Positions 28,703 to 40,756 of a stretch of DNA of 64,000 bases are shown here, one piece after another (within the stretch, counting starts at the first letter, position 1; every line of letters begins with the position of its first letter). Origin of the DNA: Methanocaldococcus indicus. GTDB lineage: Archaea; AGJL01; Methanococci; Methanococcales; Methanocaldococcaceae. The DNA lies in assembly GCF_049554935.1 (NCBI RefSeq), contig NZ_CP186926.1:512001-576000 (forward strand). Direction: 5' to 3'. Below the pieces are notes generated by a model that saw nothing but the letters and a program-made list of their open reading frames with translations, was not told the DNA's origin and made no database searches. The position numbers and the translations under genes were made by a program.

Positions 28703-28798
28703 ATTAATATCACCAATAGTTTTATAGATTAAATATTGAATATAATCAAAATTATATATATTATATATATAAGATTACTTAAAAAAGAATGTGAGAGT

Positions 28799-31783
28799 AT
28801 GATTGTAGAGAGTATAAGTTTAATGAACTTTAAAAGCCATAAAAGTAGTGAAATTAAATTTAATAAGGGAGTTGTTGTAATAGTTGGAGATAATGGAGCT
28901 GGAAAATCCTCAATATTTGAGGCCTTATATTTTGCACTATTTGGAAAATTACAAGACCAAACAATTGAAGAAATTATAACAAAAGGGAAAAATAGAGTTA
29001 GAGTAGTTGTAGAGTTTAGTGTTAATGGAAATAAATATAAGATTATAAGAGAAAGAGAGAAGAGAGGAAGAAATATTGATTTCTTGTATAAAAATGGGAA
29101 ATTAATTGCAAGAACTGCAAGGGATGTTAATAGAGAAATAGAAAACATTTTGGGAGTTGATAAAGATATATTCTTAAATTCAATTTATATAAAGCAAGGA
29201 GAGATAGCTAAATTTTTGTATGAAACTCCTGCTAGAAGAAAGGAAATGATTGCAAAACTTTTGAATTTAGATAGCTATGAAAAATGCTATGAAAAATTAA
29301 AAGATGTTATAAAAGATTATGAATTAAAGTATAATCAACTAAATGAAAAGATAAAGATTTATGAAAAATATAAAAAAGATTTAGATAATAAAAAAGAGGA
29401 ATTAGATAAACTAAGAAATGAAAAGGAAGATTTAGAAAAAGTAGTAGAAGAAATTAACAAAAAGAAGTTAGAAGTTGAAAATAAACTAAATATTCTTTTA
29501 GAGAAAAAATCAAAATATGAGAAATTTTTAAATAAATTAGAGCTTAGATTTTTAGAAATTGAAAAAAAAGAGGATAAACTAAATAGATACAAAAAAATTT
29601 TAAATGACTATAATTTCTACAACAATGAAACTGAAAAATTAAGACCATATTATAAAGAATATTTGAATATAAAAAATAATTTGAGTAATTTACAAAATGA
29701 ATTAAAAAAATTAGAAAAAGATTATTATGAATATCTAAAACTATATGGAAACTATGAACAACTTTTAAAAGAATATGAAAAATATAAAAATCTTAACTTT
29801 GATGAGAAAAATGTTGAAGATGAAATAAAACATTTAAAAAATAGAAAAGATAATTTACTTGAAATAAAAAACAAAATAATGGAATACAATAACTTAAAAA
29901 CTAAATTAGATGAATATAACAAACATAAGGAAATTTTAGATAAGTTAGAAGATAATTATAATGAATATATAAAAATTAAAGATGAGTTGGAAAACATTTC
30001 AAAAATTAAAGATGAATATATAAAAATATGTGAAAAAGAGAATAACTTAAAAGAAAAATTAAAAGATTTGGAAAGGAAAATAAATGAGCTAAATGATAAA
30101 CTAAAAAATTATAATGAAGAAGAAATAAAAAATAAATTAAAAGAGATAGAAAAACTAAAAGAAGAAAAAGAGATAATACAGAAAGAAATTGAAAACTTAA
30201 AAGCTAAAAAAGGAGCTATTGAAAATGAAATTAAAAATATAAAAAAGATACTAAATGAGTTGAAAGATGTTAAAAATGTATGTCCTTTATGCAAAACTCC
30301 AATAAATGAAGATAAGAAAATAAAACTTATAAAAGAGTATGAAAAAGAGTTAAATAACTATAACAATGAACTAACTAAAATTGAAAATAAGATTAAAGAA
30401 CTAACTAATAAAATTGAATATATAAATAACTATATAAACAAAGAAATTGAGTATATCAATCTTTTAAATACTATTCAAAAGCTAAAAGAGGATATACATA
30501 ACTTAGAAAGTGAAAAAAATAGATTAATTAAAGAATTAGATAATTTAACCAAAGAAAAAGAAAAATATAATATCAATGGAAAAAACATTATTGAGTATAT
30601 AGATGAGTTAAGCAACAAATTAAAAAACTTAGAGGATGATTATAAAAACTATATAACCTCTGAGCAATTTATTAAAAGTGTTGATTTTGATAAAATTAAG
30701 GAAGAATATAATAATTTATATAACTATATTAAGGACTACTTGAATTTAAATATTGATGAAGAAATAAAGAACATTGATAAAAAAATAGAAGAAAAAAATA
30801 ACCTCTTAAATAATATTAGAAGAAAAATTGAAATAGAAAAGGAAATAAGTGAAATTAAAAATAAATTAAATTTATTAAAAGATAATTATAATAAATATTT
30901 AGAAGTTAGAAAGGAGATTGAGAAATTAAATAAAAAACTTGATGAGTTAGAGGAACCTTATAAAGACTATACAAAATACAAAAGTTTATTAGATGAAATA
31001 ATTAGAAACTATGGAAATATAGATAATATAAAAAATAAAATATCTTCTCTTGAGAATGAACTTAATGAACTAAACTTAAAAATAGATGTTATTAAGAAAA
31101 ACTTAGAAAAACACCTATATAGTGAGATTGAAATTGAAAAAGTAAATAAAGAACATGATGAATTAGATAAAATTTATAATAATAAAAAATCTAAATTAGA
31201 CGAAATTAGAGGTAGAATAGAGACTATCAAAAAGGATATTGAAGAATTAGAATCCAAATTAAATGAACTTAACAATCTATACAAAGAAAAAGAAAAATTA
31301 GAAAAATTTATTAACTACCTAAAAAAAGTTAGAGAAATTTTTGGTAAAGATAAGTTCCAAAGATATTTAAGGATGATATATATCCCAACAATTAAAAAAT
31401 ATATGTTTGAAATCTTTGAGAATTTTGACTTAAACTATCCATATATAAATATTGATGAAAACTTTGATATACAACTACAAACACCAACAGGAGATTATCT
31501 ATCATTTAAAAATTTAAGTGGAGGAGAGCAGATAGCTGTTGCTCTATCTTTAAGATTGGCAATTGCTAAGGCATTAGTTAAAAATATTGGTTGTTTAATA
31601 GTTGATGAGCCAACAGTTCATTTAGATGAAGATAGAAGAGCTAAACTAATTGAAATATTTAATAATGTAAAAAATATTCCCCAACTTGTTATTATTTCCC
31701 ACCATAAAGAGATTGAAGACATAGCACACCAAGTAATCCTTGTTGAAAAAATTGGAGGATATTCTAATGTAAGAGTTATTTAA
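28799..31783 (+). CDS. rad50: DNA double-strand break repair ATPase Rad50
   Basis: Walker A GDNGAGKSS, Q-loop, long coiled coil with central CPLC zinc hook, LSGGE, VDEPT. Confidence 0.93.
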   Translation: MIVESISLMNFKSHKSSEIKFNKGVVVIVGDNGAGKSSIFEALYFALFGKLQDQTIEEIITKGKNRVRVVVEFSVNGNKYKIIREREKRGRNIDFLYKNGKLIARTARDVNREIENILGVDKDIFLNSIYIKQGEIAKFLYETPARRKEMIAKLLNLDSYEKCYEKLKDVIKDYELKYNQLNEKIKIYEKYKKDLDNKKEELDKLRNEKEDLEKVVEEINKKKLEVENKLNILLEKKSKYEKFLNKLELRFLEIEKKEDKLNRYKKILNDYNFYNNETEKLRPYYKEYLNIKNNLSNLQNELKKLEKDYYEYLKLYGNYEQLLKEYEKYKNLNFDEKNVEDEIKHLKNRKDNLLEIKNKIMEYNNLKTKLDEYNKHKEILDKLEDNYNEYIKIKDELENISKIKDEYIKICEKENNLKEKLKDLERKINELNDKLKNYNEEEIKNKLKEIEKLKEEKEIIQKEIENLKAKKGAIENEIKNIKKILNELKDVKNVCPLCKTPINEDKKIKLIKEYEKELNNYNNELTKIENKIKELTNKIEYINNYINKEIEYINLLNTIQKLKEDIHNLESEKNRLIKELDNLTKEKEKYNINGKNIIEYIDELSNKLKNLEDDYKNYITSEQFIKSVDFDKIKEEYNNLYNYIKDYLNLNIDEEIKNIDKKIEEKNNLLNNIRRKIEIEKEISEIKNKLNLLKDNYNKYLEVRKEIEKLNKKLDELEEPYKDYTKYKSLLDEIIRNYGNIDNIKNKISSLENELNELNLKIDVIKKNLEKHLYSEIEIEKVNKEHDELDKIYNNKKSKLDEIRGRIETIKKDIEELESKLNELNNLYKEKEKLEKFINYLKKVREIFGKDKFQRYLRMIYIPTIKKYMFEIFENFDLNYPYINIDENFDIQLQTPTGDYLSFKNLSGGEQIAVALSLRLAIAKALVKNIGCLIVDEPTVHLDEDRRAKLIEIFNNVKNIPQLVIISHHKEIEDIAHQVILVEKIGGYSNVRVI

Positions 31784-31788
31784 GTTAC

Positions 31789-32679
31789 TTAAATTTTTGT
31801 TATAAAGTCCCAGAAAGATTTTACTGCACTTGGGTTTTTTGTTTTTTTATTTTTAACTAAATATAAATTCCTAACAAGTTCTAAATCTTTTATTGGGACT
31901 ATTTTTACTAATCCTGCATTTTCAGCTTTTTTTGCTGGAATCTCTGATATTACACTCACTCCATAACCTTCTGAAACAGCTGTTATAACAGCTGAACTAC
32001 TTCCCAACTTCATAATAACATTTAAATCCATCTCTGAATAGCCTTTTTCATTTAAAGCTTTAATAAATATTTCTCTTGTTCCAGAACCTTCCTCTCTATC
32101 TATAAAGTCCTCTTTTAAAATATCTTCAATAGTTGCATATCCTTTTTTAGCTAATTCATGGTTAGGAGGAACTATCAACACTAACCTATCCTTCCCAATT
32201 ACTGTATATTCATAACTATCATCTAATAGATAACCAACAGCAGCTATATCAGCAAGACCTTCATTTAAAGCTTTAAAACATTTTTTAGAATCTTCAATAG
32301 TTATCTCAAATTTTACATTAGGATATTTTTCAATATACTCCTTTATTAATGATGGTAAAATATGTTCTCCTGGTGTTGTTGAAGCATAAACTCTTATAAC
32401 TCCTTCTGGATTTGAATACATTGATTTCATTAACATTTTAGCTTCATTTAACAATTCCAAAATTTTTTTACTTCTTTCATATAATATCTCTCCCTCTGGT
32501 GTAAGCTCAACTCCTTCTGGAGTTCTTAAAAATAATTGAACATCAAAATATTTCTCTAAAGCAGATATATGATTACTTACAGTCCCTTGAGTAATGTTTA
32601 GCTGTTTAGCAGCTTTTGAGAAACTTTTTGTTTCACTTGCTACGATAAATGTTTTAAAATAGCTAATCTTAGGGTCCAT
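31789..32679 (-). CDS. hrsM: LysR-family regulator, selenium-metabolism-associated (HrsM-like)
   Basis: SFSKAAKQLNITQGTVSNHISALE HTH; ASTTPGEHILP; REEGSGTR. Confidence 0.75.
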   Translation of the reverse strand: MDPKISYFKTFIVASETKSFSKAAKQLNITQGTVSNHISALEKYFDVQLFLRTPEGVELTPEGEILYERSKKILELLNEAKMLMKSMYSNPEGVIRVYASTTPGEHILPSLIKEYIEKYPNVKFEITIEDSKKCFKALNEGLADIAAVGYLLDDSYEYTVIGKDRLVLIVPPNHELAKKGYATIEDILKEDFIDREEGSGTREIFIKALNEKGYSEMDLNVIMKLGSSSAVITAVSEGYGVSVISEIPAKKAENAGLVKIVPIKDLELVRNLYLVKNKKTKNPSAVKSFWDFITKI

Positions 32680-32904: not shown

Positions 32905-34143
32905 ATGAAAGCAGATGCAATAAAAATAGCTGACAGAGTATATTGGGTTGGAGTTTTAGATTGGGATATAAGAAAGTACCATGGATATACATTAAAAGGA
33001 ACTACCTACAACGCATACTTAGTATTTGGAGATGACAAAGTTGCTATTATTGACAATACATATCCAGGAACATCTGCACAAATGTGGGGAAGAATAAAAG
33101 ATGCATTTGAAAAAGAAGGTAGAGATTTAAAAATTGATGTTATAGTACAAAACCATGTTGAAAAAGACCACTCAGGAGCTTTACCAGAGTTACACAAAAA
33201 ATTCCCAGATGCTCCAATATACTGTACAGAAGTAGCTGTTGAAGGTTTGAAAAAGCACTATCCATCATTAGCAAATGCACCATTTAAAGTAGTTAAAAGC
33301 TTAGATAGTGTAGATTTAGGAGGAGCTACATTAACATTCTTAGAAGCTCCATTATTACACTGGCCAGATTCAATGTTCACCTTCTATGCAGAAGAAGGAA
33401 TTTTATTCTCAAATGATGCATTTGGACAACACTTATGTTTCCCAGCTCACATGAGATTTGATAAAGATATTCCAGAATATGTCTTAATGGATGCTAATAA
33501 AAAGTTCTATGCAAACTTAATAACTCCATTATCCAAATTAGTATTAAAGAAATTTGAAGAAGTTACTAACTTAGGATTATTAGAAAAAATAAAAATGATA
33601 GCTCCATCACATGGACAAATCTGGACAGACCCAATGAAAGTTATTAAAGCATATCAAGACTTTGCTACTGGAAAAGCTGCTAAGGATAAAGCAGTTATCA
33701 TCTATGACACAATGCACTACTCAACACAAAAAATGGCACATGCTTATGCAGAAGGTTTAATGAGTGAAGGAATAGAAGTAGTAATGTACTTCTTACACTA
33801 TGATGAAAGAAGTGAAATAGTTAAAGATATATTAGATGCAAAAGCTGTCTTATTTGGAACACCAACAATCTATGATGAACCATATCCATCATTAGGAGAT
33901 ATTATCTACTATTTAAGAGGATTGAAATTTAACAGAACAGGATTCAAGAGATTAGCATTAGTCTTTGGTTCAATGGGAGGTAATGGAGGAGGAGTTGATA
34001 TATTAGCAGAAGAAGTTGCAAAATGTGGATTTGAAGTAGTTGATAAAAATGAGTTATACTATGTCCCAACAGAAGATGAATTAACAAACTGCTACATGCA
34101 AGGTAAAGAATTAGGTAAAAAAATTAAAGAAATGAAAATCTAA
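32905..34143 (+). CDS. fprA: Flavodiiron protein / F420H2 oxidase
   Basis: [38 protein letters not shown]-terminal flavodoxin domain. Confidence 0.93.
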
Positions 34144-34364: not shown

Positions 34365-34372
34365 TTTATATA
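34365..34372 (+). promoter_or_regulatory. TATA box candidate for the nitrate operon
   Basis: TTTATATA preceded by purine-rich AATAAATAG. Confidence 0.5.
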
Positions 34373-34389
34373 CTATATTTATAATTATA

Positions 34390-34403
34390 GGTAATAGCTT
34401 TCC
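34390..34403. promoter_or_regulatory. NrpR-like nitrogen operator 1
   Basis: GGTA-ATAGCT-TTCC, one mismatch to GGAA-N6-TTCC, within TATAGG...CCTATA palindrome. Confidence 0.7.
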
Positions 34404-34481
34404 TATATCCTTATGTTATATGTTTTAAATTTTTACAAAATTGTAGGAAATGGGTATCCTATAACATAGGAAATAGGAAGG
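34398..34481 (+). repeat. Long inverted repeat in narK leader (arms 34398-34420 and 34460-34481)
   Basis: CTTTCCTATATCCTTATGTTATA pairs with TATAACATAGGAAATAGGAAGG with one bulge, one mismatch and one G-U. Confidence 0.75.
34446..34459. promoter_or_regulatory. NrpR-like nitrogen operator 2
   Basis: GGAA-ATGGGT-ATCC, one mismatch to GGAA-N6-TTCC, flanked TA...TA. Confidence 0.7.
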
Positions 34482-34488
34482 TGGTAAT

Positions 34489-35949
34489 ATGAATTTAAAA
34501 AATCAAAAAAAAGAAAAAGAAAAAAAAGTTAAAAAAGTAGATATAATTAAGGCTTTAAAAAGTGGAGATATAAAAACACTAATAGCTTCTTTATTATACT
34601 TTGATACAGGATTTATGGTGTGGTTGCTATTTGGACCAGCTTTGGGGTTATTCATAGCTCAAGAGCTTGGATTATCTCCAGCTGAAAAAGGGTTTATGGT
34701 TGCTGTTCCTATCTTAGCAGCTGCTTTATTTAGAATTCCATTTGGGTATATGTATCAAGCAATTGATGGAAAATATATAGCCCTAGCAGGAATTTTGTTA
34801 TCTGCTTTACCAATTTTATATGTTAATTTATTCCCAATTGACTATACCACACTACTTGTATTAGGTGCTTTTTTAGGAATTGGTGGAGCAAGTTTTGCAA
34901 TTGCTTTACCTATGGCTGGAAGTAATTATCCAAAACAGTATCAAGGTTTAGTTTTAGGACTTGCAGCTGCTGGTAATTTAGGAGCAATGATGGATGGTAT
35001 GGTTTTTCCACCATTAGCAGAGATGTATGGATGGAGAAAAGCAGCTTTAGTTGCATTATTGTTTTTAGCTATTTCATTTATTCTATGTTGGAAATGGATT
35101 AAAGACAGTTCTCCAAAAAAACCAGAATTAAAAATAAAATCAATTTTAAACTTTGTAATAACTTTTGTATCATTTATTGTTGTTACATTACTGTTGTATA
35201 GTGGTGTAATTGGTATAAGTGGAAAGTTTGGACTCTTACTCCTTCCAATAATAGTTTGGATTATTTCAATAGCACTATTGTCCTCAGATTATAGAAATGC
35301 ACTTAAAAAGAAAGACCCTTGGGTATTTATGCTATTCTATGCCCTAACATTTGGAGGATTCGTAGGGATGTCTGGTTCAGTTGCATTTATAATAAATAGT
35401 CAGTATGGTTTTGACCCTGTATTAGCAGGATTAACTATGGCATTACTTTCATTTACAGGTGCATTAATTAGACCTATTGGTGGATGGATTTCAGATATAA
35501 TAGGAGGAGTTAGAGTTTTATTAGCAGTATTTTTAACAATAGCATTTTGTGATTTAGTTTTAGGAATATTTATTCCTCCTGCAATTATTGGAATACCATT
35601 ATTATGGTTATTATTTGCAGCATTTGGTTTAGGTAATGGAGCAGTATTCCAATTAGTTCCACTAAGATGGCCAAGAGCAACAGGTATGGCAACAGGATTA
35701 ATTGGAGCTGCAGGAGGAATAGGAGGATTTTACTTATCTTCAACTATGGGATTAGCTAAAGAATTAACAGGTAGTTATGGGCCAGGATATATAATCTTTG
35801 GAATATTAGCATTATTAGCATTTGGAATACTCTATTTACTTAGAAATGAATATATGGAGTGGGGATTTGTTAAACATCATGAAGAAGAAATTTTTGAGTC
35901 TAATAAGTTAGATACAAATGTAGTTTTACAATATCAATCTAAAAGATAA
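34489..35949 (+). CDS. narK: MFS nitrate/nitrite transporter (NarK/NasA type)
   Basis: LYFDTGFMVWLLFGP, FRIPFG, GIGGASFA, FYALTFGGFVG, IRPIGGWISD, GLGNGAVFQLVP, GAAGGIGGF nitrate-signature motifs. Confidence 0.92.
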   Translation: MNLKNQKKEKEKKVKKVDIIKALKSGDIKTLIASLLYFDTGFMVWLLFGPALGLFIAQELGLSPAEKGFMVAVPILAAALFRIPFGYMYQAIDGKYIALAGILLSALPILYVNLFPIDYTTLLVLGAFLGIGGASFAIALPMAGSNYPKQYQGLVLGLAAAGNLGAMMDGMVFPPLAEMYGWRKAALVALLFLAISFILCWKWIKDSSPKKPELKIKSILNFVITFVSFIVVTLLLYSGVIGISGKFGLLLLPIIVWIISIALLSSDYRNALKKKDPWVFMLFYALTFGGFVGMSGSVAFIINSQYGFDPVLAGLTMALLSFTGALIRPIGGWISDIIGGVRVLLAVFLTIAFCDLVLGIFIPPAIIGIPLLWLLFAAFGLGNGAVFQLVPLRWPRATGMATGLIGAAGGIGGFYLSSTMGLAKELTGSYGPGYIIFGILALLAFGILYLLRNEYMEWGFVKHHEEEIFESNKLDTNVVLQYQSKR

Positions 35950-36037
35950 CTCTAAATTCATATAACTCATTTTTCATAATATCTTTTTTATTTAAATTAT
36001 TATTTTGAGAAGAATAAATTTTTAAGGTGATGTTTTT

Positions 36038-38041
36038 ATGATAAAAACACAATGTCCTTACTGTGGATGTGGCTGTGGATTAATTATTGAGAAAAAAAAT
36101 GGAGAAATAAAAATTAAAGGAAATAGAGAACATCCTGCAAGTAAAGGTAGTATATGTATAAAAGCTGTTAAATTACCTAAAACCTTAGATAAGAATAGAT
36201 TAGATAAGGTATTATATAGAGAGTCAAAAAATGAAGATTTTAGAGAAATTAGTTGGGATTCAGCTTATGAAATATTAAAAGAAAAACTAACTAATCTATC
36301 TCCTAATGAAATCTATTTTTATATCTCTGGCCAGTTATTGACAGAAGAAATGTATGTTATAAACAAGTTTGTAAAAGGATTCTTAAAAACTAACAATATT
36401 GATTCTAATTCAAGATTGTGTGTTGCAAGTGCAGTAACAGCATACAAAATGGCTTTTGGTTCTGATGGACTACCAGGATGTAATGATGACATAGATGATG
36501 CAGATTGTTTTATCTTTGTTGGTTCTAATGCTGCTATTGCTCATCCAGGAATTTTTAGAAGAATTATAAAAAAGAAAGATAAAGAAATTGTTGTTATTGA
36601 TTTTAGATATACTGAAACGGCCAAATATGCTGACAAATGGATTCCAATAAAAGCAGGAACAGATGTAGCTCTTTTTAATTCAATACTCTATATTCTATAT
36701 AAAGAGAACAAAATATACTGGAATTTTATAAAAAAATATACTGATGGATTTGACAAAGTTTTGGAAGTCATAAAAAATTATCCACCTGAAAAAGTTGCCA
36801 AGTTGTGTGAAATTTCTGAGGAAGACATATACTATTTAGCTAATCTTTATGCAAATAAAAAGAAAGTTCTTACTTTTTGGAGTATGGGTATTAATCAATC
36901 TACAAATGGAACAATGAAAGCTCTTTCAATAATCAATGTGCATCTTGCAACAGGAAGATTAAATGATAGAGGTTGTCCTTTTTCTCTAACTGGACAATCT
37001 AATGCAATGGGAGGTAGGGAAGTAGGATATCTATCTAATGGACTACCAGGTTTTAGAGATGTTAGGAACAAAGAGGATAGAGAATTTGTAGAAAAATTTT
37101 GGGGTATTGAAGCTGGCTCAATCAAAGATAAACCTGGATTATCAATAACAGAAGCAGTAGATAAAATTTTAGATGGAGAAATAAAATTTATTTGGATTGT
37201 TTGCACAAATCCAGCAGTTTCTATGGCTAATTTAAATAAATTTATAAAGGCCTTAAAAAAAGAGGATGTATTTGTTGTAGTTCAGGATGCATACTTTACA
37301 GATACTGTTAAGTTGGCCAATCTTGCTCTTCCAGCTGCTCAATGGGGAGAAAAAGATGGTGTTATGACAGGAGGAGATAGAGTAGTTACATACTGCCAAA
37401 AATTTAGAGAAACAAAATATAAGCCTGATTGGAAAATTTTTGCTGAATTAGCTAAAAAAATGGGATTTGAAAAATACTTTAACTATAAATCTGCAAGAGA
37501 CATTTTTGAAGAATTCAAAAAACTTACAAAAGGTAGAATGTGTGACATATCTAATTTTAGTTATGAAGATTTACCTAAAAGATGGGGAAATAAACACCTA
37601 TATAAAGATTTAAAGTTTAAAACAGAAAATAAAAAAGCCAAATTTATACCAACTGAATTTAAAGAGCCAGAAGACTGGAATAAAGAAGGATTTATAATCT
37701 CAACAGGTAGGTTAAAAAAGCATTGGCACACTATGACAAGGACTATCCATATTAAAGAATTTTTAGATGAAATAGAGCCAATAGTTGAAATAAATAAAAA
37801 AGATGCCAAAGAATTAGGACTAAATGAAGGAGATATAGTTAAATTGGTGTCTGAAAGAGGAGAAATAATAAGAAAAGTGAAATTTGCAAATATAAAACCG
37901 AAACATTTATTTACCCCATTTGGATATAATAGGAACGTAACAAAGTATCAAACAAACCAGATAACAACTGATAAGTCAGACCCATATTCAAAAGAACCAG
38001 AGTTGAAATTTAGTAAGGTGAAAATATGGAATGGAAATTAA
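36038..38041 (+). CDS. narB: Assimilatory nitrate reductase, NarB type (Mo/W-bis-PGD, one 4Fe-4S)
   Basis: CPYCGCGC...C cluster, SGQLLTEE, DSNSRLC metal ligand, WSMGINQS, SLTGQSNAMGGREVG, TGR...HWHTMTRT; no signal peptide. Confidence 0.9.
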   Translation: MIKTQCPYCGCGCGLIIEKKNGEIKIKGNREHPASKGSICIKAVKLPKTLDKNRLDKVLYRESKNEDFREISWDSAYEILKEKLTNLSPNEIYFYISGQLLTEEMYVINKFVKGFLKTNNIDSNSRLCVASAVTAYKMAFGSDGLPGCNDDIDDADCFIFVGSNAAIAHPGIFRRIIKKKDKEIVVIDFRYTETAKYADKWIPIKAGTDVALFNSILYILYKENKIYWNFIKKYTDGFDKVLEVIKNYPPEKVAKLCEISEEDIYYLANLYANKKKVLTFWSMGINQSTNGTMKALSIINVHLATGRLNDRGCPFSLTGQSNAMGGREVGYLSNGLPGFRDVRNKEDREFVEKFWGIEAGSIKDKPGLSITEAVDKILDGEIKFIWIVCTNPAVSMANLNKFIKALKKEDVFVVVQDAYFTDTVKLANLALPAAQWGEKDGVMTGGDRVVTYCQKFRETKYKPDWKIFAELAKKMGFEKYFNYKSARDIFEEFKKLTKGRMCDISNFSYEDLPKRWGNKHLYKDLKFKTENKKAKFIPTEFKEPEDWNKEGFIISTGRLKKHWHTMTRTIHIKEFLDEIEPIVEINKKDAKELGLNEGDIVKLVSERGEIIRKVKFANIKPKHLFTPFGYNRNVTKYQTNQITTDKSDPYSKEPELKFSKVKIWNGN

Positions 38042-39873
38042 ATGAAATTGTAAATAATGGATTCTGTGCAGCTTGTTCAATATGTTCTGTTGTATGTCCT
38101 AATAATTTAATAGATTTTGATAACAAACCATTTTTAAAAGATGAATGTTTAAGAAAAGGGCATGGAATGTGTTATGAAGTTTGTCCAAGAGTCTCATCTG
38201 GAAAGTATCAAATTAAAATTAGAGAAGGATTTAAAGAGGAGTATTATTATGGAAAAGGAGATATAGAAGGACAAGATGGGGGTGTTGTAACTACTTTTTT
38301 AAAATATTTAATTGAAAATAAAAAGATTGATGGAGCTATTATTGTAGCAAGAGATGAGTATTGGAAACCTATTTCAATGATAGTTCAGACAGCTGATGAC
38401 ATAATAAAAGGAGCAAAATCAAAATACACAATATCAACTATGGAAGCTTTAAGAAAAGCAGGGGAGTTAGGTTTAAAAAAGGTTGCAGTTGTTGGATTAC
38501 CTTGCCAAGTTAATGCATTAAGAAAAATTAAATATTTCCCATATCTCTCCAAGCATGATTTTGAATTGGGAAGAGATGGTAAGCCCACAAAATTACCAAA
38601 AATTGAGTATTTAATTGGATTATTCTGTATGGAGAAGTTTGAATACAACAACTTTAAAGAAGTTTTAGAAAAACATAATATAAATATAAAAGATGTTAAG
38701 AAGTTTGACATTAAAAAAGGAAAGTTGTTAGTCTATTTAGATAATGAAGTTAAAGAGATTAAATTAAGTGAATTTAAAGTATTAGATGGATGTAAAGTTT
38801 GTAGAGACTTTACAGCTGAGTTGGCAGATATTTCAGTAGGTTCTGTTGGTTCTCCTGATGGATATTCAACTATCATTATAAGAACTGAGAAAGGAGAAGA
38901 AATTAAAAAGGCTATTGAATTAAAAGAAGGAGTTGATATTGAAAAAATAGAAAAATTAAAAGAGAAAAAACTAAAAAGATTTAAAGAAGAAATAAATAGA
39001 AGAAAAGAAAATAATGAATTCATCTCATACTATTGGGCTACTGATTATGGAGGAGTTAAAAAAAGAGGAGATGGAAAATTCTTTATAAGAGTTAGAGCTA
39101 AGCCAGCAGGATTTTATACAATTGATGAAATAGAAGGAATTTTAAAAGTAGCCAAAAAATACAATGCTGAAATAAAAACAACTGATAGAGGTGGATTTGA
39201 GCTTCATAAAGTAGATGGTTATTATATTGATGATATTATAAAAGAATTAAAAGAACTAAACATAACAACTGGCTCTGAAGGTCCATTGGTTAGAGCTGTC
39301 TTAGCATGTCCAGGATATTTAAATTGTGGAAATGGTTTAATTGAAACTAAAAAAATAGCTGAAATTATAGAAGAAAAATTTAAAGAGTATCCATCTGAAA
39401 ATAAATTTAAAATTTCTATAAGTGGATGCCCAAGTATGTGTGTTAGAGCAAATATCCATGATATTGGAATTGTAGGGGTAAAAATTCCAAAAGTAAATGA
39501 TAAATGTGTTGGATGTGGCAGATGTTATGAAACTTGCCCTGTAGAGGCAATTTATATAAGAGGAGAAACTTCATACACTAACTATAACATCTGTGTTGGA
39601 TGTGGAAAATGTATTAAAAACTGTCCAAATGAAGGTAGAGAGGCAAAATTTGAAGGATTTAGAATATATATTGGTGGAAAATCCGGAAGAACAGTTTATG
39701 AAGGATTCAGTTATTTAATTGAGAGAGATGTAGATAAAGTTTTAAAAATTATTGAAAATACACTAAAAACATATAAGAAATATACAGATAAAGTCCAAAG
39801 AGAAAGATTAGCTCATGTCATTAGAAAAGTAGGAGTAGAAAACTTCTTAAAAGAAGTTTTTGATAATATTTAA
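38026..39873 (+). CDS. fsr: F420-dependent sulfite reductase (Fsr) homolog, probable F420-dependent nitrite reductase
   Basis: N-terminal FrhB-like half (EWKLNEIV, GQDGGVVT, VGLPCQ) fused to siroheme half (ACPG..NC, SGCPSMC) with ferredoxin insert. Confidence 0.88.
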   Translation: MEWKLNEIVNNGFCAACSICSVVCPNNLIDFDNKPFLKDECLRKGHGMCYEVCPRVSSGKYQIKIREGFKEEYYYGKGDIEGQDGGVVTTFLKYLIENKKIDGAIIVARDEYWKPISMIVQTADDIIKGAKSKYTISTMEALRKAGELGLKKVAVVGLPCQVNALRKIKYFPYLSKHDFELGRDGKPTKLPKIEYLIGLFCMEKFEYNNFKEVLEKHNINIKDVKKFDIKKGKLLVYLDNEVKEIKLSEFKVLDGCKVCRDFTAELADISVGSVGSPDGYSTIIIRTEKGEEIKKAIELKEGVDIEKIEKLKEKKLKRFKEEINRRKENNEFISYYWATDYGGVKKRGDGKFFIRVRAKPAGFYTIDEIEGILKVAKKYNAEIKTTDRGGFELHKVDGYYIDDIIKELKELNITTGSEGPLVRAVLACPGYLNCGNGLIETKKIAEIIEEKFKEYPSENKFKISISGCPSMCVRANIHDIGIVGVKIPKVNDKCVGCGRCYETCPVEAIYIRGETSYTNYNICVGCGKCIKNCPNEGREAKFEGFRIYIGGKSGRTVYEGFSYLIERDVDKVLKIIENTLKTYKKYTDKVQRERLAHVIRKVGVENFLKEVFDNI

Positions 39874-39886
39874 AAATAAATTTTTT

Positions 39887-40756
39887 TTATTGAATTTTAA
39901 TTCCTCTCTTTGTTCTTATTTCTTTAAATTTCTCTCTTAATTTTTTTGTTATTTCTCCAACTTTTTTGTTGTTAATTACTCTACCATCTACTTCAAAAAC
40001 TGGAACTATCTCAGCTGCTGTTCCAGTTATAAATAATTCATCAGCTGTATATAAATCATGTAGTGTTAAAGGAACTTCTCTAACTTCTATACCTTCCTCC
40101 TTAGCCAATTCAATAACAACATCTCTTGTAATTCCTTTTAAAATACTTTGATATTCTGGAGGTGTCTTTAAAACTCCATTTTTAACAACAAATATATTAT
40201 CTCCTGTTCCTTCAACAACAAAACCTTTATCATCCAATAAAAAAGCTTCATCTACATTTGCATAGTTTGCCTGAATCTTAGCTAATATACTATTTAAATA
40301 ATTCAAAGATTTAACAGCTGGATTTAAAACATCTACTGGCAATCTTCTAACAGAAACAGTTATAGCTCTAATTCCATCCTCCCCCAACAATGGCTCCATT
40401 GGAACAGCTATACAGAAGATAGTTGGTTCTTTACATTTTCTTGGGTCTAATCCTAAATCACCTACACCTCTTGTTACTACTAACCTAATATAAGCATCTT
40501 TTAAATTGTTCTCTTTTAGAGTGTTTATAACAACATCAATCATCTCCTCTTTTGTTAGAGGTATATCTAAGCAAATAGATTTTGCAGAATCATACAACCT
40601 ATCTATATGCTCCTTCAACATAAAAACTACTCCATCATAAGCCCTAATTCCTTCAAATACCCCATCCCCATATAGAAGTCCATGGTCAAAAACAGATATT
40701 TTAGCTTCTTCCTTACTAACAAATTTTCCATTTAAATAAATTTTCAAAATTATCAC
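39887..40756 (-). CDS. ilvE: Branched-chain amino acid aminotransferase
   Basis: [42 protein letters not shown]. Confidence 0.95.

Follow-up and report, generated by a model that had tools for sequence, protein, structure and literature searches.

The closest described relatives of the locus treated here are the narK-nas-fsr operons of the Methanococcales, which Heidenreich, Gouveia and Wagner (Front Microbiol, July 2026; PMC13381448) present as a "nitrate reduction salvage pathway". In that account Methanocaldococcus infernus grows on nitrate, and the independence of this growth from molybdenum suggests a tungsten enzyme; Nas and NarK are affiliated with the Aquificales and both were modelled with AlphaFold; and MiFsr reduces nitrite with F420H2, its crystal structures at 1.2-1.6 Å containing endogenous nitrite. 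An fsr gene within the operon is reported for Methanocaldococcus indicus, M. sp. FS406-22 and Methanothermococcus thermolithotrophicus, with a second fsr only in the last two, and the M. infernus operon is without fsr. M. thermolithotrophicus DSM 2095 has a premature stop, and the operon Fsr of M. thermolithotrophicus carries an R424T change, which is seen in the present alignment too. In the available part of an earlier study, narK, narB and fsr of M. thermolithotrophicus are up-regulated during diazotrophy (Maslac et al. 2022, PMC9765008). This article concerns the corresponding locus of M. indicus, within a window of 64,000 nt (NZ_CP186926.1 of GCF_049554935.1, positions 512,001-576,000); all coordinates without another label are window positions. 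The operon is real, the original prediction made from this DNA read it correctly, and it has already been published: gene order, protein types and Aquificota affinity are the same as in the described operons, and there is no difference in kind.

The window belongs to a Methanococcales genome (G000) of 1.44 Mb and 28.2% guanine plus cytosine (GC), placed in the same GTDB genus as M. infernus ME (G003) and M. sp. FS406-22 (G006). The open reading frame (ORF) listing gives three intact, co-oriented plus-strand genes, narK, nas/narB and fsr, at 34489-39873, exactly where the original prediction had put them:

34489..35949, plus strand: narK, 486 aa, a major facilitator superfamily (MFS) nitrate transporter of an unusual 14-helix NarK type.
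36038..38041, plus strand: nas/narB, 667 aa, a predicted cytoplasmic, Cys-ligated nitrate reductase with a molybdenum (Mo)- or tungsten (W)-bis-pterin.
38026..39873, plus strand: fsr, 615 aa, a predicted Group I F420H2-dependent sulfite/nitrite reductase.

The locus is very probably a three-gene nitrate-assimilation ("salvage") operon, through which this genome would import nitrate, convert it to nitrite and convert nitrite to ammonium. Domains and residues supply direct evidence, and the physiology is carried over from orthologues. NarK would bring nitrate into the cytoplasm, by a presumptive mode of transport. The leaderless, single-subunit Nas/NarB, with one [4Fe-4S] cluster, would then reduce nitrate to nitrite, probably with low-potential electrons from ferredoxin and presumably at W or Mo. 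Fsr would oxidise F420H2 and pass six electrons through flavin adenine dinucleotide and iron-sulfur clusters to siroheme, turning toxic nitrite into ammonium, which glutamine synthetase would assimilate. When ammonium is plentiful, NrpR probably represses the operon through two operator-like sites that follow the TATA box.

The nitrate reductase carries most of this assignment. NarB has the Pfam domains Molybdop_Fe4S4, Molybdopterin and Molydop_binding, and its translation contains both motifs quoted for it in the original prediction: SNSRLC spans residues 123-128 and TGQSNAMGGREVG spans 318-330. In an alignment to the solved F420-dependent FdhA, C128 of NarB occupies the selenocysteine (Sec) position; the next residue is Val in NarB and His in FdhA (C-V versus Sec-H), and the catalytic Arg of formate dehydrogenase (FDH) is replaced by Thr (LTGQSNAMGG in NarB versus LRGQNNVQG in FdhA). 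All 16 aligned relatives retain the [4Fe-4S] cysteines C6, C9, C13 and C40 as well as C128, which is the metal ligand. The N-terminus, MIKTQCPYCG, begins directly at the iron-sulfur motif and, judged by eye on the sequence, has neither an extension nor a twin-arginine leader. The NarB clade has no NCBIfam model of its own.

The nearest relatives of NarB are the M. sp. FS406-22 and M. infernus ME proteins, at 70-71% identity, followed by Aquificota nitrate reductases at 55-61%, with Aquifex aeolicus NarB at 58%. A maximum-likelihood tree of NarB was built from 43 rows, picked from the nearest named proteins and bacterial loci, with three Methanococcales FdhA proteins as the outgroup. Its six archaeal sequences form one clade (support 100/100) inside a group that otherwise consists solely of Aquificota NarB (82/87), and the Campylobacterales are sister to this Aquificota/archaeal group. 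The Sec-containing Methanococcales FdhA proteins split off at 100/100, 1.7 substitutions per site away. The original prediction had called the protein a nitrate reductase rather than a formate dehydrogenase and had proposed BLAST and phylogeny as a check; the protein groups with Aquificota NarB and not with formate dehydrogenases, and its Cys in place of Sec and the absence of the FDH His and Arg point the same way.

The bacterial Nas/NarB enzymes (cyanobacterial NarB and Klebsiella NasA, "NC-type" in a scheme cited by PMC13381448) are likewise cytoplasmic enzymes that have a Cys ligand and a single [4Fe-4S] cluster and draw on an external low-potential donor. The window NarB is only about 38-40% identical to those of Nas-type loci of Pseudomonas and Actinomycetota and falls below the NasA and NasC cut-offs. 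Unlike the bacterial enzymes, it may be tungsten-dependent, by analogy with M. infernus, for which PMC13381448 infers tungsten.

The narK product has the Pfam domain MFS_1, and its best NCBIfam match is TIGR00886, the NarK family (E 1.6e-75). Aligned to the solved NarU/NarK structures (NarU 4iu8), it keeps both substrate arginines, R82 in FRIPFG (paired with LRVPYS of NarU) and R327 in IRPIGG (paired with ARSVGG). By hydropathy scan, it has 14 hydrophobic segments rather than the canonical 12 of the MFS; the two extra segments, at 219-235 and 248-264, fall in a central stretch without alignment to NarU. The two substrate arginines are presumably the positions in transmembrane helices 2 and 8 of E. 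coli NarK/NarU. The M. infernus orthologue likewise has a 14-helix model (PMC13381448). NarK is 75.5-81.7% identical to the three other Methanococcales copies in a trimmed alignment (77-84% by BLASTP); for the FS406-22 and M. infernus ME copies the values are 79-82% trimmed and 78-84% by BLASTP. Identity to Aquificota NarK proteins encoded next to narB is 45-53%.

Fsr combines the Pfam domains FrhB_FdhB_N/C, NIR_SIR_ferr and NIR_SIR with an inserted 4Fe-4S ferredoxin (Fer4), and aligns over residues 1-611 to PDB entries 9tn7 (E 9e-297), 7np8 (1e-284) and 7npa (1.5e-276). The residues that coordinate substrate in MiFsr, R356, R424, K461 and K463 (PMC13381448), correspond to R355, R423, K460 and K462 of the window protein. 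These four positions are conserved in 32, 31, 32 and 32 of 32 aligned Fsr rows, respectively, and 23 Cys columns are invariant. Domain order, substrate residues and cysteines are thus those of Group I Fsr (MjFsr 7npa, MtFsr 7np8, MiFsr 9tn7/9tn9); from these the window fsr differs only in its genomic position, inside the nitrate operon and as the sole copy. Identity to the 613-aa Fsr of G003, presumed to be MiFsr, is 69%, and no residue distinguishes operon from stand-alone Fsr proteins. FsrII of anaerobic methanotrophic archaea, described as an F420-dependent nitrite reductase in the accessible portion of PMC9295563, is likewise an F420H2-driven, siroheme-containing, nitrite-reducing enzyme. 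It forms a separate phylogenetic group with both arginines substituted (PMC13381448), whereas the window Fsr keeps both and belongs to Group I. The operon copy is the only fsr of G000 and also the only gene of the genome with a NIR_SIR domain. This agrees with the listing in PMC13381448, where a second fsr is confined to FS406-22 and M. thermolithotrophicus, and it follows that the one Fsr must handle sulfite as well as nitrite.

The comparison with bacteria covers 80 narB loci fetched for the purpose. A narK gene whose product is 45-63% identical to the window NarK immediately precedes narB, on the same strand, in 12 of them, 11 from Aquificota and one from Campylobacterales; none of the 80 contains an Fsr-like ORF. 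Aquificota narK-narB pairs, such as that of Aquifex aeolicus, share with the window the adjacent, co-oriented order and a leaderless single-subunit NarB of about 670 aa. They differ in the nitrite reductase: in the two Aquificota loci examined, narK-narB is accompanied by a NirB-type reductase (942 aa, NAD(P)H-linked) with siroheme-synthesis genes in one and by a NirA-type siroheme reductase in the other, and by no Fsr, whereas the window locus has Fsr. Many Hydrogenothermaceae NarB proteins also bear a C-terminal globin domain that the window NarB is without. As an observation in its own right, many relatives from Hydrogenothermaceae and Persephonella (for example P0013, P0016 and P0022) are nitrate reductase-globin fusions of about 820 aa; in the NarB of locus L082 (L082:6983-9460) the globin domain, PF00042, lies at aa 710-810, and the archaeal copies do not have it.

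These comparisons support the view that an Aquificota-type narK-nas module is joined to an archaeal fsr. The original prediction had proposed just such a chimera, had guessed at an Aquificae-like donor and had called Fsr native to archaea. The first two ideas hold on the position of NarB in its tree and on the 11 Aquificota loci with adjacent narK and narB. The third holds on the presence of fsr in 32 of 40 Methanococcales species genomes and in 0 of the 80 bacterial loci.

Among these 40 Methanococcales genomes, 10 of which are less than 90% complete, a nitrate reductase occurs in four: G000, G006 (71% identity), G003 (71%) and the fourth carrier, G037 (68%, with an internal TAA). The remaining NarB matches in the order are 33-40% identical and contain one TGA each, and are therefore selenocysteine formate dehydrogenases. 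The full narK-nas-fsr arrangement is present in G000, G006 and G037, and narK-nas alone in G003; a further fsr, standing alone, is found in G006 and in G037. The junction between narB and fsr varies from the 16-nt overlap of G000 to a 1-nt gap in G006 and at least 74 nt in G037, and the genes flanking the cluster are not common to the four genomes. The premature stop, the fsr-less M. infernus operon, the extra isoforms and the intact M. indicus operon all agree with PMC13381448. A synteny survey of the Methanococcales had been among the checks proposed by the original prediction, together with the caveat that the cluster might be rare rather than wholly new. With four nitrate-reductase genomes, three of them with fsr linked, the caveat was apt and indeed understated: the operon is described in PMC13381448 and was flagged earlier in PMC9765008, as far as the accessible part of the latter goes.

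The layout of the three genes suggests that they form one transcription unit. The gap between narK and narB is 88 nt, and fsr overlaps narB by 16 nt (38026-38041), as the original prediction had stated. An AAGGTGA ribosome-binding site lies inside the narB end, 5 nt before the fsr ATG; because of the overlap, fsr is without an intergenic promoter. Toward the 3' end of narB, a strict TATA pattern has no plus-strand match over the roughly 790 nt that precede fsr, the pattern being too crude for any conclusion. Within the operon span, a T8 run is present only after fsr. The elements around the genes are as follows:

34365..34372, plus strand: TATA-box-like element TTTATATA of the putative narK promoter (pattern match and sequence).
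34390..34403, no strand: operator-like site O1, GGTAATAGCTTTCC, with one mismatch to the NrpR consensus GGAA-N6-TTCC, 99 nt before the narK ATG.
34446..34459, no strand: operator-like site O2, GGAAATGGGTATCC, with one mismatch; it precedes the narK ATG by 43 nt and follows O1 by 56 nt.
39881..39888, plus strand: T8 run 7 nt past the fsr stop codon, a likely archaeal terminator.
39887-40756, minus strand: ilvE, convergent with fsr.

The operator consensus GGAA-N6-TTCC is that given in the available text of PMC2723118. The TATA-like element lies 17 nt before O1, and a transcription start is expected about 25 nt downstream of it, so the start site would fall inside O1. In an extended form, O1 (...TTCCTATATC) matches a perfect site upstream of G006 narK. 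Within the 350 nt before narK there is a perfect site in each of G006, G003 and G037, with additional one-mismatch sites in G006 and G003; G000 has its two one-mismatch sites, at -99 and -43. Perfect sites number 56 per 1.41 Mb, a background of about 0.014 per 350 nt. The window itself contains three exact matches to GGAA-N6-TTCC, no more than expected by chance and none of them before narK; the narK sites are found only when one mismatch is allowed. Their pairing is uncommon. At least two near-consensus sites within 150 nt upstream occur at only 9 of 1232 ORFs (at least 150 aa, contig C1), and these comprise nifH, modA, amt, two divergent neighbours of these genes, an N-type ATP-binding cassette (ABC) binding protein with its divergent neighbour, narK and one other. 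The starts of the paired sites are 53-66 nt apart at nifH, modA, amt and the binding-protein gene, and 56 nt apart at narK.

The genome of M. indicus provides a matching nitrogen context: an NrpR gene is present, nifH scores above its cut-off, and perfect GGAA-N6-TTCC sites stand directly before nifH, glnA, amt and modA. Together these features support the wiring of the acquired narK module into the native nitrogen regulon, as a prediction from promoter sequence. The likely NrpR regulon of G000 comprises nifH, glnA, an ammonium transporter gene, modA and an ABC substrate-binding protein gene, with perfect sites before C1 468260-469114 (minus), 261715-263055 (plus), 480384-481550 (plus), 472296-473063 (minus) and 818167-819423 (minus); at most of them, a further site with one mismatch lies at a distance of 53-66 nt. 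NrpR operators on this operon were not found in literature searches or in PMC13381448 and the accessible part of PMC9765008, and the words NrpR, operator, promoter and duplication occur zero times in the main text of PMC13381448, its supplements lying outside the search.

Several observations weigh against a nitrate-assimilation operon under nitrogen control. The best NCBIfam match of NarB is Fdh-alpha, at 497 against a cut-off of 666, and the protein lies under every curated nitrate-reductase cut-off (NasC 437 versus 1100, NasA 380 versus 1000, NapA 357 versus 904). NarK is also below its curated threshold, with 254.5 bits against the TIGR00886 cut-off of 311.7. Nas activity in M. infernus extracts is weak, viologen-linked and lost on purification, and the electron donor and metal of the enzyme are left unsettled (PMC13381448). 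At the promoter, the narK sites of G000 are imperfect while those of nifH, glnA, amt and modA are perfect, and given these mismatches NrpR control of narK may be weak or lost in this genome. An operon that is probably nitrogen-repressed would leave the sole fsr without a clear route to expression for sulfite detoxification.

Three other explanations of the locus have been considered. The best surviving, which is nevertheless improbable, is that the cluster serves mainly for detoxification or as an electron sink, clearing leaked nitrate and nitrite and so protecting methyl-coenzyme M reductase (Mcr) rather than supplying nitrogen. Fsr is a known detoxifying enzyme, nitrite inhibits Mcr, and the phylogeny in PMC13381448, the source of the Mcr inhibition as well, places NarK in the NarK2 (nitrate/nitrite antiporter) subfamily. 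Yet such a role would hardly call for a dedicated importer upstream of the reductase, and the promoter has operators of nitrogen-regulon type. M. infernus, with an orthologous narK-nas, grows when nitrate is its only source of nitrogen and leaves no nitrite in the medium (PMC13381448), and nitrogen limitation induces the operon in M. thermolithotrophicus, according to the accessible part of PMC9765008.

That fsr is a housekeeping sulfite reductase whose linkage to narK-nas is incidental is rather less probable again. It is the sole fsr of the genome and groups with the stand-alone Fsr of the closest relatives, mirroring the methionyl-tRNA synthetase (MetRS) tree; operon and stand-alone copies lack a distinguishing residue, and M. 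infernus uses an unlinked fsr. Set against these points are the 16-nt overlap with the ribosome-binding site inside narB, the identical gene order in G006 and G037, which also keep a separate fsr, and the standing of Fsr as the only candidate nitrite reductase of the genome. A structure prediction for a complex of NarB with Fsr residues 1-330, which would bear on electron transfer or nitrite channelling, gave no answer and is evidence neither way. The least probable reading, that the Mo/W enzyme acts on another substrate, either formate or an oxyanion such as chlorate, selenate or arsenate, draws on the Fdh-alpha match, on nitrate-reductase equivalog scores that are all below cut-off and on the lack of any Nas of the Aquificota/archaeal clade purified to date (PMC13381448), but it conflicts with the Cys in place of Sec, the absent FDH His and Arg, the 100/100 separation from FdhA, the two nitrate-binding arginines kept in the linked NarK, and the nitrate-dependent viologen oxidation in M. 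infernus extracts and nitrate growth that tracks the intact gene (both PMC13381448).

The history of the assimilation operon is complicated by its fsr genes. In the whole-gene Fsr tree, each operon copy lies near the stand-alone copy of its own host, and the window copy lies beside the Fsr proteins that stand alone in its nearest relatives; an approximately unbiased (AU) test, applied post hoc after the tree, rejects one clade of the three operon-linked Fsr (p = 0.00078). Independent recruitment of fsr into the operons had been entertained on these grounds and is withdrawn, the operon and stand-alone copies being recombination mosaics; because the copies have recombined, both the whole-gene tree and the AU test are confounded. 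In G006, the operon fsr (L034:10221-12089) and the stand-alone gene (L046:1465-3354) are identical along a tract of 524 nt, set in DNA of 62-88% identity. In G037, the operon copy (L036:10208-12109) and the stand-alone copy (L055:1486-3351) are 97-100% identical over most of their length and 53-71% identical around nt 1000-1450, a central segment in which the published R424T site lies. The N-terminal 62 Fsr columns are unconverted in both genomes; there, the operon copies are 87-92% identical and have a one-residue insertion in common. A tree of this short segment places the G006 and G037 operon copies and the window copy with the Fsr of G003, G008 and G015 (99/91), apart from the stand-alone copies of their own genomes. 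A literature search yielded no relevant paper on fsr gene conversion in the Methanococcales, and the main text of PMC13381448 makes no mention of such mosaics, leaving aside its supplements, which may hold an Fsr phylogeny or synteny.

The clade of G000, G008, G003 and G015 appears both in the MetRS tree (99 by the Shimodaira-Hasegawa-like approximate likelihood ratio test, a quick method) and in the whole-gene Fsr tree (100/99), and the window fsr is therefore the lineage's own Fsr. An empty-site test gave no ancestral position for it: the genes that adjoin the stand-alone fsr of G008, G003, G015, G006 and G001 are scattered in G000. Separately, the MetRS match in G037 (G037:C1:520061-522124, minus strand) consists of two adjoining pieces, covering query residues 1-276 and 251-645, a pattern that points to an insertion or frameshift in the gene, or to a problem in its assembly.

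In the NarB-only tree, the root of the archaeal clade falls on the long branch of the window sequence. The NarK and NarK+NarB trees, rooted on eight Aquificota loci, give (G037,(G006,(window,G003))), with 80-84% support for one grouping, and match the species relations. A tentative reconstruction, given somewhat less than even weight here, is that the cassette arose a single time, in the window's Methanocaldococcus subclade, when an Aquificota narK-nas was placed before the subclade's own fsr under NrpR operators, and spread laterally to the lineages of G006 and G037, where fsr was later partly overwritten by gene conversion; the single fsr of G000 would then be the founding arrangement. Vertical descent with many losses cannot be told apart from lateral spread, since the NarK and NarK+NarB trees fit the species relations. 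The GC contents of narK, narB and fsr, 31.7, 29.6 and 28.5%, and their third-position GC of 14-17% are inside the range of the genome. No compositional trace of transfer is found in the three genes, so the transfer was not recent.

The genes around the operon include some that were considered as parts of it. Upstream of narK is a co-oriented FprA-like flavodiiron gene (32905-34143, plus strand), whose product finds its best NCBIfam matches, below cut-off, among the nitric oxide-reductase flavorubredoxin models. Adjoining it is a divergent LysR regulator gene (31789-32679, minus strand) that passes the "selenium metabolism-associated LysR" model. Neither gene adjoins narK in the three other cluster-bearing genomes, and the pair was rejected as part of the system because it is not conserved beside narK elsewhere. 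Farther upstream, a 1015-aa ORF (28736-31783, plus strand) of very low GC (18-20%) and purine-skewed composition encodes an unremarkable Rad50 ATPase that has a long coiled coil. Within fsr, antisense ORFs of about 100 aa (38385-38711 and 38733-39023, both minus strand) recur within the fsr of other genomes, and most likely arise from the purine richness of the coding strand rather than being genes.

The use of nitrate by methanogens was long held to be impossible, nitrite being poisonous to methanogenesis. In the operon considered here, a bacterial module for import and reduction becomes safe through its coupling to an archaeal, F420-driven Fsr. This principle is already in print, and the value of the present analysis in that respect is confirmatory: M. 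indicus is another genome with an intact copy of the operon, in which one Fsr would serve nitrite and sulfite. What is added is the presence of NrpR-type operators on a horizontally acquired operon, the rarity of the trait (4 of 40 species genomes) and the recombination of fsr paralogues, which would mislead any whole-gene phylogeny of Fsr.

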